Origin: an uncultured delta proteobacterium
Lineage (GTDB): Bacteria; Myxococcota_A; Polyangia; Palsa-1104
Length of the DNA stretch: 64,000 nt
Assembly: GCA_963785725.1 (NCBI GenBank)
Contig: CAWAWS010000014.1
Location: 320,001-384,000 of the forward strand
Direction: 5' to 3'
The position numbers were made by a program, and so were the translations under genes. This document shows positions 6,070 to 18,940 of this stretch, one piece after another. Position 1 is the first letter of the stretch. Every line of letters starts with the position of its first letter. The notes beneath the pieces were generated by a model. The model was given only the letters and a program-made list of their open reading frames with translations, was not told where the DNA came from and searched no databases.

Positions 6070-6164
6070 CATCGGTGAAATGCGCAACAGTATTTGAGGC
6101 TTATCGCGGGCTTGGTCGCACAGCGCCGACGTTCGCCCGCAACTGCAAGGCGCAAGACGAGCAC
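6070..6164 (+). repeat. Dispersed ~95-nt intergenic repeat, copy A
   Basis: Core GGCTTATCGCGGGCTTGGTCGCACAGCGCCGACGTTCGCC aligns with copies at 16275-16370 (+) and 18846-18940 (-). Confidence 0.85.
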
Positions 6165-6176
6165 ACCTACTAATGC

Positions 6177-6205
6177 TTGACCATACAAGTCATGCGGATT
6201 AGGCT
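6177..6205 (+). promoter_or_regulatory. sigma70-type promoter for thpR-recA
   Basis: TTGACC (6177-6182), 17 nt spacer, TAGGCT (6200-6205), 9 nt before ATG6215. Confidence 0.65.
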
Positions 6206-6214
6206 ACTGAACAA

Positions 6215-6781
6215 ATGCCACGTATCTTCCTCGCAGTGAGCTTCTCCGTCGCGGTGACGCGGAAGATCGCGGAGGAGGTCGAGCGTCGCAAGCCGCTGTT
6301 GGCGGACGCCGGCTTCCGCATCGCCTGGGTGCCGGCGGCGAACCTGCACGTGACGATGCGCTTCATCGGCACCGTCGCGGATGAGCTGGTCGAGGGCATC
6401 ATCGGCGCCGCCGGCAAGGTCGGGCGGCGACACGCGCCGTTCGAGGCGCGGGCGTTCGGCGTCGGCGTCTTCCCGTCGCTGGCGCAGCCTTCGGTGCTGT
6501 GGGTGGGCGTGCAGCCGTCGGCGGCGTTGACGGCGCTGCAGAACGACGTCGAGACGACCATGGTCGACCTCGGGTTCGAGCGCGAAGGGCGCGTCTTTGC
6601 GCCCCACGTCACCGTCGGTCGCGTCAAAGAGTCGCGCGGTGGCCAAGAAGCGCCGTGGACGGGCGCGCTCGATGCCGGTTCGTCGACGGTGAGCGAGCTC
6701 GTCGTGTACGAAAGTAAAACCCGTGCCGCCGGCGCCGAATACGTCGCGCGCGCACGTGTACCTTTACATAAGGAGAAGTGA
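6215..6781 (+). CDS. thpR: RNA 2',3'-cyclic phosphodiesterase (2H family)
   Basis: RIFLA start, two HxT motifs ([19 protein letters not shown]); cinA-thpR-recA synteny. Confidence 0.92.
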
Positions 6782-7911
6782 TGAAAGACGAGAAGTCCGC
6801 CGCAGCATCGTCGCGCTCGGGTCGCGACGCCGCCATCGAGCTCGCCGTTCAGCGGCATCGAAAAGCAGTTCGGCAAAGGCTCGATCATGCGCCTCGGCGC
6901 CGATGAGAAGCCGGCCGCGATGCGACGTCAGTTCCGACGGGCTCGCTGGCGCTCGACATCGCGCTCGGCATCGGCGGACTGCCGCGCGGCCGCATCGTCG
7001 AGATCTACGGGCCGGAGTCGTCGGGCAAGACGACGCTGACCCTGCACGCTGATCGCCGAGGCGCAAAAGCGCGGCGGCATCTGCGCCTTCGTCGACGCCG
7101 AGCACGCGCTCGACGTCGCAGTACGCGCGCAAGCTCGGCGTCAAGCACCGACGATCTCCTGATCTCGCAGCCGGACACCGGCGAGCAGGCGCTCGAGATC
7201 GCCGACATGCTCGTGCGCTCGACGGCGATCGACGTCGTCGTCATCGACTCGGTCGCGGCGCTCGTGCCCAAGGCCGAAATCGAAGGCGAGATGGGCGATC
7301 AGCACATGGGTCTGCAGGCGCGCCTGATGTCCCAGGCGCTGCGCAAGCTCACCGGCACCATCTCGAAGTCGAACACGCTGGTCATCTTCATCAACCAGAT
7401 CCGCATGAAGATCGGCGTCATGTTCGGCAATCCCGAGACGACGACCGGCGGCAACGCGCTCAAGTTCTACGCCTCGGTGCGCCTCGACATCCGCCGCATC
7501 GGCGCCATCAAGCAGGCGGAGAAGGCGATCGGCAACCGCACCAAGGTCAAGGTCGTGAAGAACAAGCTGGCGCCGCCGTTCCGCGAGGTCGAGTTCGACA
7601 TCATGTACGGCGAAGGCATCTCCAAAGAGGGCGACATCCTCGACTTGGCGTCCGAAGGCAACGTCATCGAGAAGTCCGGCGCCTGGTTCGCCTAGAAGGG
7701 CGAGCGCATCGGCCAGGGCCGTGAAAACGCCAAGGAGTTCTTGAAGGCGAACCCCGACGTGGCGTTGGCGATCGAGCGCGCGGTGCTGGAGAAGCATGGC
7801 GTGGCGCGTGGTGGCGACGCGCCGCTGCCGATCGCCGTCGAGGAAGCGGCGGCCGCGAATGGGCCGGCGCCGAGCAAGAAGTCGAAGAACCAGGATCCGC
7901 CGCGGGCGTGA
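6781..7911 (+). pseudogene. recA: Recombinase RecA, disrupted in this sequence by about 5 indels and an in-frame TAG (probably assembly error)
   Basis: [63 protein letters not shown] and [18 protein letters not shown] spread over several frames; TGA 7909-7911. Confidence 0.95.
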
Positions 7912-16400: not shown

Positions 16401-17279
16401 TTATAGGCGGGCGGCGGAGAGGCCGAACATGAGCGGCAGGCCGTCGTGCGTGGCGGGCGCGGCGAAGCGGCCGGCGCCGAGGTCGCGCATGTCGGCGAGC
16501 GGTTGCCAGCCGTTGGCGTAGGGCCATTCGCGCAGCTGCTCGAGGCGCAGGCCGGCGCGCAAGACGGCGTCGACGACGTCGGCGAGGCTCCATTGGAATT
16601 CGTGGGAATGGTCGGGGTTGACGAAGCCGCGATCGCCGTCGATCCAGCCGCTCGGCGTGAGCGCGCTGCCGCTCAAACCGACGTAGTCGCCGACGCCGGC
16701 CGTCTCGGGGCGCGCGACGCCGCTCGTCGTGTACGGGTAGGCGAAGCGACCCTGCTCGTCGAGCATCATCGCGAACGGGTGGAACTCGACGAGCACGAGG
16801 CGACCGCCGGGCGCGAGCACGCGGGCGACGCCGCTCATGAGCGTCGTCAGATCGGAAAGCCAGCCGATGACGCCGTAGGACATGAAGACGCGATCGAAGC
16901 TGCGTCGTTCGTGCGCGGCGCGCGGCAGCCAGTCGTAGACGTCGGCGCGCTCGAAGCGGCCGGGCAGGCCGGAGTCGGCGGCGAGCTGCGTGGCGAAGGC
17001 GACGGCCTCGTCGCTGATGTCGACGCCGGTGACGCGCGCGCCGAGCCGCGCCAACGACAGCGTGTCTTGGCCGCTGTTGCAGCTGAGGTGGAGGAGGCTG
17101 CGGCCGGACAGCTCGCCGAGCAGCTCGCGCTCCTCGGGAAACAGCGTCAGGCCGCCACCGCGCAAGAAGGCCGCCTGATCGTGCTTATGGCTGTTGTGAA
17201 CGACGGTCGCGCGATTCCAGGACCGGCGGTTCTGCTCGTGCAGATCGCGGCGAACGCGGTCGTCTTCGCCCGACGACAT
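16401..17279 (-). CDS. Class I SAM-dependent methyltransferase
   Basis: LLHLSCNSGQDT, VTGVDIS, FDRVF and LAPGGRLVLVEFHP. Confidence 0.9.
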   Translation of the reverse strand: MSSGEDDRVRRDLHEQNRRSWNRATVVHNSHKHDQAAFLRGGGLTLFPEERELLGELSGRSLLHLSCNSGQDTLSLARLGARVTGVDISDEAVAFATQLAADSGLPGRFERADVYDWLPRAAHERRSFDRVFMSYGVIGWLSDLTTLMSGVARVLAPGGRLVLVEFHPFAMMLDEQGRFAYPYTTSGVARPETAGVGDYVGLSGSALTPSGWIDGDRGFVNPDHSHEFQWSLADVVDAVLRAGLRLEQLREWPYANGWQPLADMRDLGAGRFAAPATHDGLPLMFGLSAARL

Positions 17280-17737
17280 CAGCCGGCGAGCAGGGACTCG
17301 GCGATGCGCTTGACGTCGCCGGCTTCGACCAGGCCCTTGTGCGACTTCATGATGTCGCCCACGAGCTTGCCGATCTGCTTGACGTCGCTGACGCCGAGCG
17401 CCGTGATGCGCTCTTGCACCAGCGCCTTCAACGCCGCTTCGTCCATTCCCTTCGGCAGGAAACGCTCGCAGAATTGGATCTCGAAGCGCAGCTCGGCCGC
17501 CTGCTCTTGGCCTTTTTCGCCGATCTTCTCGAACTCCTCGAGCGCCTTTTGCATCTGCTTGCGATAGGCGGCGATGACGTCGGTGATGAGCGCGTCGTCG
17601 ACTTCGCCGGTGAACCCTTTGGAAGTACGCCGCTCCATGATCTTCGTCTTGAGCATGCGCACCACGTCGGACGTGCGCTGGTCCTTGTCCCTCATCGACT
17701 GCTTGAGGGTGTCGTTGAGCTGCTGCTCGAGTGGCAT
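17279..17737 (-). CDS. GatB/YqeY domain protein
   Basis: LNDTLKQSMRDKD, FLPKGMDEAAL and IGKLVGDIMK; ~152 aa; GGGAGG RBS. Confidence 0.88.
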   Translation of the reverse strand: MPLEQQLNDTLKQSMRDKDQRTSDVVRMLKTKIMERRTSKGFTGEVDDALITDVIAAYRKQMQKALEEFEKIGEKGQEQAAELRFEIQFCERFLPKGMDEAALKALVQERITALGVSDVKQIGKLVGDIMKSHKGLVEAGDVKRIAESLLAG

Positions 17738-17767
17738 CGGATCCTCCCGTCGCTGTGATAGCATGAA

Positions 17768-18802
17768 ATGAGAGTGAAGCGCGTTCTCGTCCTGCATACC
17801 GGTGGCACGCTGGGCATGTCGTCGAGCGGCGGGCCGTCGCCGCTGTCGCCCGATACTTATGCGCACGCGATCTTGTCGCGCGTGCCCGAGCTGGCGTCGC
17901 TGGCGCACGTCGAGACACGGATCTTGTGCAACCTCGATTCGTCCGACATCGGGCCCGACGAGTGGAGCGCGCTGGCCGACGAGGTCGCTCAGGCTCGCGA
18001 GCGCGCCGACGGCATCGTCGTCATCCACGGCACGGACACGATGGCCTATACGGCGGCGGCGCTGTCGTTCGCGCTCGCGGGGCTCGATCGACCGGTCGTG
18101 CTCACGGGGTCGCAGCGGCCGCTCGGCGAGATCCGTTCGGACGCGCGCCGCAACCTCGTCGACGCCGTGGATTTGGCGACGCGCGATCTGCCGGAAGTGG
18201 GCGTCTGCTTCGATGGGCAGCTCTTGCGCGGCAATCGCGCGACGAAGGGTGACGCCTGGTCGTATTCGGCGTTCGCGTCGCCGAATTGCCCGCCGTTGGC
18301 GCGACTGGGGCTCGATGTCGAGATCGGCGCGCACGTGCGGCGTCCGCAGCAGCCGTTCGCGGTGGATGCGCGGTTCGATCCACGCGTCGCCGTCTGCTAC
18401 GTCACGCCGGCGATGGCGCCGGCGCTGCTCGAGCGCGTCGGCGCCGGCGAAGGCGACGGTGGCATCCGCGGTGTCGTCTTGGCCGCGTTCGGCGTCGGCA
18501 ACGTGCCGGCGCGCGCGCGTTCGATCGCGACCGCAGTGCAGCGGCTCACCGACAGCGGGGTCACGACGCTCGTGGTCACGCAGGCGCACGCCGGCGCCGT
18601 CGACCTCGCGCTCTACGCCAACGGCGTCTGCTTGCGCGACGCGGGCGCGTTGTCGGGCGGCGACATGGGCATCGAAGCCGCTGTCGCCAAGCTGATGCAC
18701 GCGCTCGCCCGCTTCCCCGACGACGCCGCCGCGCGCGCCGCGTACCTCACGTCCGACGTCGCCGGCGAGCGCGGCGACGGCCGCGTCCACATCCGCGACT
18801 GA
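17768..18802 (+). CDS. L-asparaginase, type I (AnsA-like)
   Basis: HTGGTLGM, DSSD, HGTDTMAY, TGSQ and RGNRATK. Start could be GTG17774. Confidence 0.92.
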   Translation: MRVKRVLVLHTGGTLGMSSSGGPSPLSPDTYAHAILSRVPELASLAHVETRILCNLDSSDIGPDEWSALADEVAQARERADGIVVIHGTDTMAYTAAALSFALAGLDRPVVLTGSQRPLGEIRSDARRNLVDAVDLATRDLPEVGVCFDGQLLRGNRATKGDAWSYSAFASPNCPPLARLGLDVEIGAHVRRPQQPFAVDARFDPRVAVCYVTPAMAPALLERVGAGEGDGGIRGVVLAAFGVGNVPARARSIATAVQRLTDSGVTTLVVTQAHAGAVDLALYANGVCLRDAGALSGGDMGIEAAVAKLMHALARFPDDAAARAAYLTSDVAGERGDGRVHIRD

Positions 18803-18845
18803 CGCCGCCGCCACGGCACGTTCGCTCGCGGCGACGCGTGAAGCC

Positions 18846-18940
18846 GTGCTTGCGTCTGACGTTGCGCTTGGCGGCGAACGTCGGCGCTCCGAGACCAAGC
18901 CCGGAATAAACCATCGATCGCTTTGCGCGCTCCACCGATG
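18846..18940 (-). repeat. Dispersed ~95-nt intergenic repeat, copy C
   Basis: Reverse complement reads CATCGGTGGAGCGCGCA...GGTTTATTCCGGGCTTGGTCTCGGAGCGCCGACGTTCGCC...AGCAC. Confidence 0.85.

Follow-up and report, generated by a model that had tools for sequence, protein, structure and literature searches.

Hairpin-bearing intergenic repeats are known from the REP and REPIN systems, where a bulge is required for TnpA-REP activity (PMC8266576) and compensatory changes have been reported among REPIN copies (PMC3116915). The intergenic repeats of Pseudomonas share the tail-to-tail bias described below (PMC2718517), and MITEs with internal minisatellites have also been described (PMC4596501). Some REP-like repeats have no dedicated transposase, and long non-GTAG repeats can flank Y1 genes (Di Nocera 2013, PMC3733652). 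The family presented here offers a measurable case of spread and maintained folding in the absence of a partner transposase, with orthologues in close relatives that appear to gain, lose and swap modules within nearly identical flanks.

The window analysed here, a 64,000-nucleotide stretch of DNA from an uncultured soil bacterium, contains three copies of a non-coding repeat of about 170 nt. The first-pass annotation had described it as an element of about 95 nt; its three copies lie at the places and on the strands given there, and they align when the minus strand is taken for copy 3, but the true start is about 70 nt further 5', and the main feature, a hairpin here called H1, falls just 5' of the element as first drawn. 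Copy 1 (5969..6164, plus strand) is a full-length insert variant, delimited by alignment and by a CM match at 5969-6150 of 98 bits, which extends from the cinA stop almost to the promoter-like region of thpR-recA, stopping immediately 5' of it. Its H1 (5983..6055, plus strand, read from the sequence) comprises a left arm at 5983-5995, a GG bulge at 5996-5997, an upper stem with GGT loop at 5998-6012 and a right arm interrupted by a 29-nt insert module at 6018-6046. The conserved unstructured core follows on the same strand (6056..6142), recognised by column information content and devoid of folding signal, in the order link, CATCGG, GG(C/T)TTAT and a final C-run plus AA. Copy 2 (16204..16370, plus strand; CM match 16204-16355, 142 bits) is full length and of canonical form, and lies between the convergent mvaS and methyltransferase genes; the plus-strand spacer from the mvaS stop to the copy (16072..16203) holds no minisatellite, unlike many other loci. 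Its H1 (16218..16260, plus strand), supported by fold z-scores (-4.4 as DNA, -4.3 as RNA) and by covariation over 41 copies, has a 13-bp lower stem with a basal G-T pair, a GG bulge at 16231-16232, a 6-bp upper stem and a TGT loop at 16239-16241. The core of this copy (16261..16347, plus strand) folds worse than shuffles, and the weakly conserved 3' tail (16348..16370, plus strand) fades gradually, ending near an AGCAC motif. Copy 3 (18846..18969, minus strand), between the convergent asparaginase and enoyl-CoA hydratase genes, is 5'-truncated to a link remnant, core and tail without H1; it matches profile positions 58-173 only, and its CM alignment skips the hairpin. Pfam agrees with the flanking genes as previously named (CinA, HMG-CoA synthase (mvaS) and enoyl-CoA hydratase), and no transposase adjoins the window copies, as had also been noted.

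A search of the whole genome with a consensus, suggested by the first-pass annotation, did find further copies. A profile built from the three window copies alone recovered dozens more, and the refined 174-column profile gave 72 matches at E<0.01 in the 88%-complete assembly, representing 71 loci (one was matched twice), compared with none in the reversed genome; the common motif is thus far beyond chance. All but one of the 72 matches fall outside called genes, the single exception being a 5'-truncated match that overlaps an ORF end. Convergent gene contexts are strongly over-represented (39/72 copies versus 312 of 2221 gaps genome-wide, P 7e-15), and divergent contexts account for 4/72 copies versus 735/2221 gaps. 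The earlier observation that each copy follows a gene on its own strand is true of the three window copies and of 56/72 matches overall. Across the genome, however, the repeat is more closely associated with an opposite-strand gene whose stop faces its 3' end (51/72), the median distance to the gene being 36 nt on the 3' side and 125 nt on the 5' side. No relation was seen between copy orientation and a rough estimate of the leading strand (38 versus 31). The spread is uneven, several large contigs lacking any copy, and one subfamily of four copies (subfamily 3) is restricted to contig C18. Local hopping was rejected, since nearby copies are not significantly more alike (0.69 versus 0.66, P 0.14), and only 1 of 1830 copy pairs exceeds 95% identity, which argues against a recent burst. 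A CcrM-like link was likewise rejected, as GANTC is present in only 30/61 copies. The absence of terminal inverted repeats and of an obvious target-site duplication (TSD), previously reported for the window copies, extends to the family: copies show no excess of inverted match between their 5' and 3' parts, and own-copy direct repeats are no longer than those of a cross-copy control. No circular-intermediate or TSD signature emerged, with the proviso that fuzzy ends and distant empty-site genomes could let 2-3-bp duplications escape.

H1 is a 43-nt hairpin of 19 bp with a GG bulge and a 3-nt loop. Over 41 copies, 92% of 779 stem cells are paired, and two-sided changes occur in 14 of the 19 pairs, a level reached by 0 of 500 shuffles and far above slid controls; the bulge is kept in 52/61 copies and the basal G-T pair in 54/61. 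The covariation that was to be looked for is therefore real, but resides in H1 and not in the stem originally named (CGG-GCT/AGC-g-CCG), where 75% of cells are paired, two-sided change occurs in one of six pairs and the covariation of 0.070 is below the slid control of 0.141. CGTC stands two bases 3' of the hairpin foot in 41/61 copies and 5' of the stem in 1/61, and GTAG was found at the hairpin foot in none of the 61 copies on either strand. A strong covarying hairpin so close to stop codons could be a transcribed 3'-end RNA element, in which H1 stabilises or terminates flanking mRNAs under host selection and copies are spread and homogenised by gene conversion. On the plus strand, G-T mismatches are favoured over A-C (23 versus 8), a bias equally compatible with RNA and single-stranded DNA, and a second repeat family in this genome is arranged in parallel fashion, following stop codons in 23/30 cases. 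We nevertheless consider this explanation rather unlikely: H1 is the only structured part, both strands fold about equally well, the copies show no terminator-like U tract, sigma-70 promoter or intrinsic terminator, copy 3 and nine other matches lack the 5' part altogether, there is no match in four same-genus genomes, the element is mostly deleted in one close relative, and the seeding of new sites is left unexplained. The structured 3'-UTR RNA that had been put forward gains no direct support from these results.

The core, of about 85 nt, carries short invariant blocks and no folding signal, its z-scores being near 0 and no better than those of shuffles. A second helix in the core was rejected, as the pairs with mutual information reflect subfamily linkage and are not Watson-Crick, and so was a small minus-strand ORF starting from the conserved CAT, whose frame is shifted by the 8- versus 9-nt variants of the link. 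Rfam 15 covariance models gave no match at gathering in the window and, over 11 loci, one chance match with E 0.89; in keeping with the initial impression, the family was unmatched in Rfam and in the literature searched. Invariant blocks that do not fold, some motifs of which recur in the second family, would suit a double-stranded protein-loading or recombination site (for a nucleoid protein, topoisomerase or tyrosine recombinase), with the core as binding site and H1 as an extrudable cruciform whose symmetry comes partly from template-switch repair rather than selection. Tyrosine recombinases are present in the genome, and 60 of the 61 stems have a sequence of their own while remaining paired, the outcome expected of arm-to-arm copying. 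Such copying does not predict the conserved bulge, however, and attC R-box pairs (R''/R') occur in 0/61 copies, integron integrase TIGR02249 stays below cut-off in this assembly, and the flanks are syntenic housekeeping genes rather than cassettes. The protein-loading site proposed earlier also sits badly with the deletion in a close relative, the uneven and lineage-restricted spread and the lack of any match in the four same-genus genomes searched, and we regard this alternative as unlikely.

Half of the copies adjoin a locus-specific minisatellite, on the H1 side, with units of 9-63 nt that differ at each locus. Copy pairs within 1 kb number five (0.25 expected); five back-to-back pairs have unlike arms and tandem-repeat spacers, one of which contains an IS4-family element. 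These pairs, the minisatellites, which in many single copies lie on what would be the inner side, and the precedent of MITEs with internal minisatellites (PMC4596501) raise the possibility that the copies are decayed halves of a MITE with terminal inverted repeats (TIRs). The unit would be a back-to-back pair of imperfect inverted arms of about 170 nt around a minisatellite spacer, as in BrickBuilt, and a DDE transposase, for instance that of the resident IS4-family element, would mobilise it. We think this very unlikely. The element ends are the least conserved part by information content per column, the reverse of TIRs; no TSD was found; the arms are 57-74% alike, no more than random pairs (mean 66%); 10/71 loci are involved and 61/71 are single; and the ends of the IS4 family, like those of the ISAzo13 family in this genome, are unrelated to the repeat, with three other IS4 copies lying away from it and repeat units varying by locus.

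Comparison with other genomes suggests that the family is restricted, among those searched, to this bacterium and its very close kin. BLAST of copy 2 gave no match in 40 genomes; a CM search of 60 related genomes, including four of the same genus, gave none with strict filters, scoring 50 candidates out of the thousands in each genome; and a mismatch-tolerant pattern gave single matches in 6/40 genomes, which equals the level of the reversed control, all without H1. Neither of two patterns matched a species-wide genome collection, 5 and 9 pattern matches in viral contigs were not upheld by the CM, and plasmids, phages and a distant blastn search gave no match. Metagenome contigs yielded one match, to one pattern, in an independent contig (L107) that carries the orthologue of copy 1 at the same site. 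Orthologous sites are empty in same-genus genomes G001, G003 and G004, and G002 has an unrelated 490-nt insert where the others are empty; the whole mvaS-methyltransferase gap in same-genus genomes is only 25-30 nt, and the copy 3 site in G003 is an empty gap of 95 nt. The 71 loci, the lineage restriction and these empty sites fit the high-copy non-autonomous mobile element first suggested. No clean insertion/empty pair was seen in close strains; in one close relative the element is mostly deleted, and this empty-like allele resembles a microhomology deletion.

Element parts also appear to have been exchanged in place between resident copies, because H1 is unlinked to the core and orthologues carry different modules or are deleted. 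H1 and core distances are uncorrelated among copies (rho 0.055, Mantel P 0.20), whereas distances of the two core halves correlate at 0.65, clonal simulations giving 0.40-0.73. The insert module is present at copy 1 and absent from its orthologue in L107, absent at copy 2 and present in a run-X1 contig, and occurs at six loci of the present genome (one strict search, seven rows, one locus twice). Between L107 and copy 1, 30 of 151 element sites differ, as do 17 of 567 in thpR, whereas all 48 sites compared in the 3' non-coding flank are identical; the cinA 3' end differs at 16 of 190, more than thpR, and part of the excess divergence of the L107 element may therefore be regional. Given assembly defects that include fold-back contig ends, a frameshifted recA in the window and foreign DNA at two contig ends, copies created or scrambled by long-read assembly or polishing have to be weighed. 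That reading is already largely refuted and retains almost no probability: L107 has the repeat at the same site, contigs from three public runs carry many variants, the insert module included, and errors do not make compensatory changes.

The search for a mobilising enzyme, including a copy beside an HUH/RAYT, IS110 or reverse transcriptase gene as once proposed, found no such pairing. In the 88%-complete assembly, no Y1/RAYT gene was detected by Pfam, NCBIfam or tblastn with Y1 proteins of 30 relatives, and IS110 (PF02371), Y1 (PF01797) and TnpB (PF07282) each gave 0 matches with positive controls. The Y1 loci of these relatives carry no copy of the repeat; Y1 transposases are found in three of the four same-genus genomes. 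A search for IS91 Y2 was uninformative, giving no signal in any control genome. No bacterial reverse transcriptase was found in the assembly, the one match, to a Ty3/gypsy-like eukaryotic fragment, lying at the end of a contig, and an HUH-motif scan of predicted proteins and uncalled gaps near copies gave nothing. We somewhat favour the explanation that the family spread as a gene-less REP/BIME-type mobile repeat copied in trans, its predicted enzyme being an HUH/Y1 single-strand transposase that would read the folded hairpin, probably as single-stranded DNA rather than RNA. Resident copies would keep swapping modules by recombination, perhaps through gene conversion or strand transfer, minisatellites may arise by polymerase slippage beside the hairpin, and most copies have probably become passive, affecting transcript 3' ends incidentally if at all. 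A bolder version, which we rate as rather improbable, envisages a class of mobile repeats that lack both a tag and TIRs and use the hairpin as a swappable cassette: a structure-specific enzyme other than a RAYT, IS110 or DDE enzyme would read the GG-bulged hairpin, rewrite or exchange it between resident copies several-fold faster than the flanks change, and seed the locus-specific minisatellites. The second family, with its parallel layout and common motifs, would then rely on that machinery too. If the swapping is indeed due to an enzyme other than a RAYT, it would represent a new hairpin-reading DNA-editing activity. The value of the family is otherwise moderate, as the host is uncultured, the repeat has no assigned enzyme or function and species-specific intergenic repeats of similar size are common; what is gained is a clearly delimited new family, which provides a marker for strain typing and a lead.

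Novelty of kind cannot be claimed, as REP, BIME and species-specific intergenic repeats are well known, and the kind is ordinary in a genome with about ten further repeat families. REP, BIME and REPIN elements (PMC3116915, PMC8266576, PMC3733652) resemble the present family in being extragenic and lineage-restricted, with compensatory stem changes and a convergent-gene bias; the GC-rich imperfect hairpin with conserved bulge recalls E. coli group-2 REPs, and the occurrence of some inverted pairs of unlike arms, with no TIR or TSD found, recalls REP/BIME. In contrast to REP/REPIN, there is no GTAG tag and copies are mostly single with few inverted doublets, the 43-nt hairpin sits on an 85-nt unstructured core and tail with minisatellites on one side, and no RAYT was found in the assembly, unlike RAYT-linked REPs. 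CGTC-tagged REPs (PMC3733652) likewise carry CGTC, but have 8-9-bp stems, 4-5-nt loops and a CCA tail rather than a 19-bp bulged stem with a 3-nt loop, and the TIR families of TIRYT genes (PMC3733652) differ in that the repeat was not found to flank any Y1 gene here. BrickBuilt of Porphyromonas gingivalis (PMC4596501) and bacterial MITEs (PMC10969869) are likewise intergenic, species-restricted and commonly truncated, and BrickBuilt joins tandem repeats of about 20 nt to conserved non-repeat segments; it is built from a single 23-nt unit and bounded by TIRs, in contrast to the present family, which has variable units and a covarying bulged hairpin and in which no TIRs or TSDs were found. Pseudomonas R-families (PMC2718517) and Caulobacter CIR (as cited in PMC3372372 and PMC10969869) are similar in size (100-300 nt), in copy number (tens) and in strictly intergenic placement, and have in common the tail-to-tail bias, suspected gene conversion and, for several families, an unknown mobiliser; no sequence relation tested positive, the present repeat is not inverted over its whole length, and fewer than half of its copies contain GANTC. 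With integron attC it shares a long hairpin, extrahelical bases and a variable stem sequence with pairing kept, but it lacks R-boxes, a cassette array and an integron integrase and sits between syntenic core genes. The best reading is that of a lineage-specific REP/BIME-like non-autonomous repeat without a GTAG tag or known enzyme.

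The three stretches picked out by the first-pass annotation are present as described, copy 3 aligning on the minus strand, and their flanking genes agree (CinA, HMG-CoA synthase and enoyl-CoA hydratase), the other neighbours being a 2',5'-RNA ligase-like ThpR, RecA, a methyltransferase and an asparaginase. The start reported for the element was too far 3': conservation seen in the flanks extends approximately 70 nt further 5', so that the copies occupy 5969-6164 (+), 16204-16370 (+) and, for the 5'-truncated copy 3, 18846-18969 (-). The source genome (8.9 Mb in 47 contigs, 88% complete) contains many more. 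A profile built from the three window copies and then iterated gave 67 matches at E<0.01, and a 174-column profile gave 72, equivalent to 71 loci as one insert-bearing locus matched twice; the reversed genome gave 0 with either profile. That the family is an assembly artefact is scarcely credible. The first-pass annotation did not recognise it, and Rfam likewise gives no match. The 5' part is missing in 10/72 matches and the 3' part in 2/72. Among the 61 near-full matches used for alignment statistics, mean pairwise identity is 66%, and only 1 of 1830 pairs exceeds 95%. The sole recent duplication seen, at C18:108392-110436, comprises two subfamily-3 copies on either side of one gene, at a distance of 1.7 kb; counted together with 294 nt of flank they are 98% identical. 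Copy 1 ends immediately 5' of a promoter-like stretch (TTGAC ... TACTGAAC, window 6172-6214) that precedes thpR-recA, is conserved in five relatives and may have a LexA-box role. The genome encodes many sigma-54 regulators and two recA genes, the second on contig C39; that right after thpR (window 6778-7911, +) has frameshifts and two in-frame stops, public contigs differ from it by indels, and the damage is either an assembly error or a pseudogene.

Read on the plus strand, the element opens with a weak 14-nt lead, followed by a GG-bulged hairpin of 43 nt (H1), a link, an 85-nt core with short invariant blocks and, at its 3' end, a C-run and AA, and then a gradually fading tail of approximately 25-45 nt. 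In H1 a 2-nt bulge separates the lower stem of 13 bp from the upper stem of 6 bp, which is capped by a loop of 3 nt. In an alignment of window copy 2 with 40 hand-picked near-full copies from the 61, insert variants being left out, 92% of 779 cells are paired and two-sided changes occur at 14/19 pairs, matched by 0/500 shuffles, while in slid controls pairing falls to 29-62%. The covariation that was sought is thus present, but in H1 and not in the stem named by the first-pass annotation, where 1/6 pairs shows a two-sided change and a slid control scores higher. The 61 copies have 60 distinct H1 stems, with the bulge GG in 52, the loop GGT or TGT in 56 and a basal G-T in 54, and their mismatches are 23 G-T vs 8 A-C. 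Of 37 genomic matches to a strict descriptor of H1, 36 fall within element copies. A protein-loading site whose symmetry is kept by template-switching could be read into the freely varying but paired arms; set beside the mostly constant bulge, we regard it as rather improbable.

By our own codon-based gene calls, 71/72 matches are intergenic. Among background gaps 170-1500 nt long, 312/2221 are convergent and 735/2221 divergent; for the element the counts are 39/72 (P 7e-15) and 4/72. The 5' end lies a median of 125 nt from the same-strand stop (49 copies) and the 3' end a median of 36 nt from the stop of the facing gene (50 copies). These positions are where a 3'-end RNA element might lie, H1 serving as its structure, a reading that we think unlikely. 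On neither strand does the core fold better than shuffled sequence. Tandem repeats with 9-63-nt units occur within 200 nt 5' of 31/62 copies with an intact 5' end, as against 152/1634 control gaps and 35/210 convergent gaps; in each of four back-to-back pairs the two copies share one array, so the independent arrays number approximately 27. Only 9/62 copies have tandem repeats on the 3' side, which is largely coding, so that the two counts are not like for like. The minisatellite units are locus-specific, a few being related between loci, and all three window copies are without an array. Five back-to-back pairs have repeat-rich spacers of approximately 190-400 nt and arms 57-74% alike, the level of random pairs. 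One such spacer contains a 1.49-kb IS4-family element also present at three other, unrelated sites; these four near-identical copies and three ISAzo13-family elements were observed in the genome. Short perfect palindromes resembling repressor operators were noted in the 5' spacer at C14:46100, C7:765460, C20:254870 and C18:137380.

Among copies, H1 shows no linkage to the core. The core defines three subfamilies (32, 25 and 4 of the 61), and H1 variants are common to different core subfamilies. For site pairs between the top of H1 and the core, mean r2 is approximately 0.02, and 93-97% of these pairs show all four gametes. In the 50/61 copies whose bulge and loop are canonical, distances in the H1 arms and in the core are uncorrelated (rho 0.055, P 0.20), while the two core halves correlate at 0.65; simple clonal simulations, with divergence below that of some real regions, gave averages of 0.40-0.73 and a minimum of 0.07. 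A metagenome contig (L107) carrying the orthologue of copy 1 differs from it at 30/151 element positions but at 0/48 of the 3' non-coding flank, and from the window at 17/567 positions of thpR and 16/190 of the cinA end. Of its private 12-mers, 40/144 recur in other copies of the source genome (control mean 6), and its H1 has a different, fully paired stem that lacks the insert module, 29-31 nt long, by which the H1 right arm is interrupted in copy 1 and in copies at five or more further loci. Two single contigs of depth 4-7 from soil runs also concern copy 2: one (X1) runs from the mvaS end into copy 2 and goes on with the insert module, which copy 2 of the window lacks, and in the other (X3) a stretch of 18 nt stands where the window has 177 nt of copy 2, as a deletion across an 11-nt direct repeat would leave it. 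Recombination is the simplest reading of the module differences between copies; rapid arm-to-arm repair inside H1 could also contribute, the two being indistinguishable with these data.

The element was not found by BLAST in 40 relatives, by its covariance model in 60 relatives (50 candidates scored per genome), by two patterns in a species-wide genome collection, or among the plasmids or phages searched; stray pattern matches in relatives and viral contigs failed the covariance model or lacked H1. The proposed comparison of empty sites at cinA-thpR showed no element in five relatives, the gap holding a small opposite-strand ORF in four genomes and being closed in G010. The mvaS-methyltransferase gap is 330 nt here vs 25-30 nt in three same-genus genomes, the fourth (G002) having an unrelated 490-nt insert (L126:1007-1498) that is repeat-like with internal inverted repeats, and between asparaginase and hydratase the same-genus G003 has 95 nt. 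Since same-genus genomes lack the element at these sites, we infer that its arrival postdates the genus split. Close kin carry it, as at the cinA-thpR site of L107, and many variants occur on contigs from soil runs X1, X3 and X7. A copy beside an HUH/RAYT, IS110 or reverse transcriptase gene, another suggestion of the first-pass annotation, was not seen, no such bacterial gene having been found in the 88%-complete genome. Domain profiles found 0 Y1/RAYT, and there was no tblastn match to 30 Y1 proteins of relatives, 0 IS110, 0 TnpB, no integron integrase above cut-off and no bacterial reverse transcriptase. Y1 genes occur in 8/14 relatives, 3/4 within the genus, and the element is absent beside 30 Y1 loci of relatives. 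A single-copy partner gene could lie within the missing 12% of the assembly. As many as 13 short genes resembling Y1/HUH transposases are carried by same-genus genomes (L135, L136, L142, L143, L150, L151, L158 and L159); a motif upstream of them is conserved, and REP flanks are not evident.

Our preferred reading, held with moderate confidence including its predicted enzyme step, is that the folded GG-bulged H1 would be recognised in trans by an enzyme acting on single strands, in all likelihood an HUH/Y1 one. Such recognition would explain a stem sequence that is free under strict pairing, survival mainly in tail-to-tail gaps and the failure to find terminal inverted repeats or target duplications: in line with the first-pass annotation, no direct or inverted terminal repeat is copy-specific above cross-copy controls. 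Recombination within the conserved link would produce new combinations of H1 and core, and minisatellites would grow by slippage alongside the very stable hairpin. The element fails tests of MITE membership, and we judge a decayed MITE with terminal inverted repeats an improbable origin.

Approximately ten further intergenic families, of 8-35 copies each, occur in the genome (for example at C4:149072, C18:30157, C35:42436, C39:626630, C27:38787 and C24:130841). Several have terminal inverted repeats beside TAG and look like IS-derived MITEs; one family has a covarying inner hairpin. A second bulged-hairpin family (30 copies by motif, approximately 100 nt; L161-L180, e.g. C4:64145 and C7:508065) lies directly behind a stop codon in 23/30 and was not found in 40 relatives. 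It is laid out in parallel to the element, with a GCGATAA-type motif, the bulged hairpin and a 10-13-nt motif common with the link of the element; tandem repeats follow at the 3' end in 16/30, and there are whole-unit tandem triplets. The two families may share machinery. Several contigs end in long fold-back duplications, and a Ty3/gypsy-like protease-RT fragment at the start of C38 (L103:1-1050) and a 22-41% GC stretch at the end of C7 (929000-935918) are probably of eukaryotic origin and were wrongly joined to these contigs.

The features of attC, IS110 and IS200/605 used for comparison are general knowledge, and tests of attC membership failed. Comparison with MITEs draws on parts of PMC4596501 and PMC10969869, and that with species-specific intergenic repeats on parts of PMC2718517, PMC3372372 and PMC10969869; the literature searched, mostly outside subscription journals, does not describe a repeat of this type from myxobacteria. 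The element would work in much the way of REP/BIME elements (PMC3733652, PMC3116915 and PMC8266576), but it lacks the GTAG tag and the dominance of doublets; the consensus figures of PMC3733652 could bear on the tag comparison. The element is a real family, new to the literature searched, of REP/BIME-like kind.
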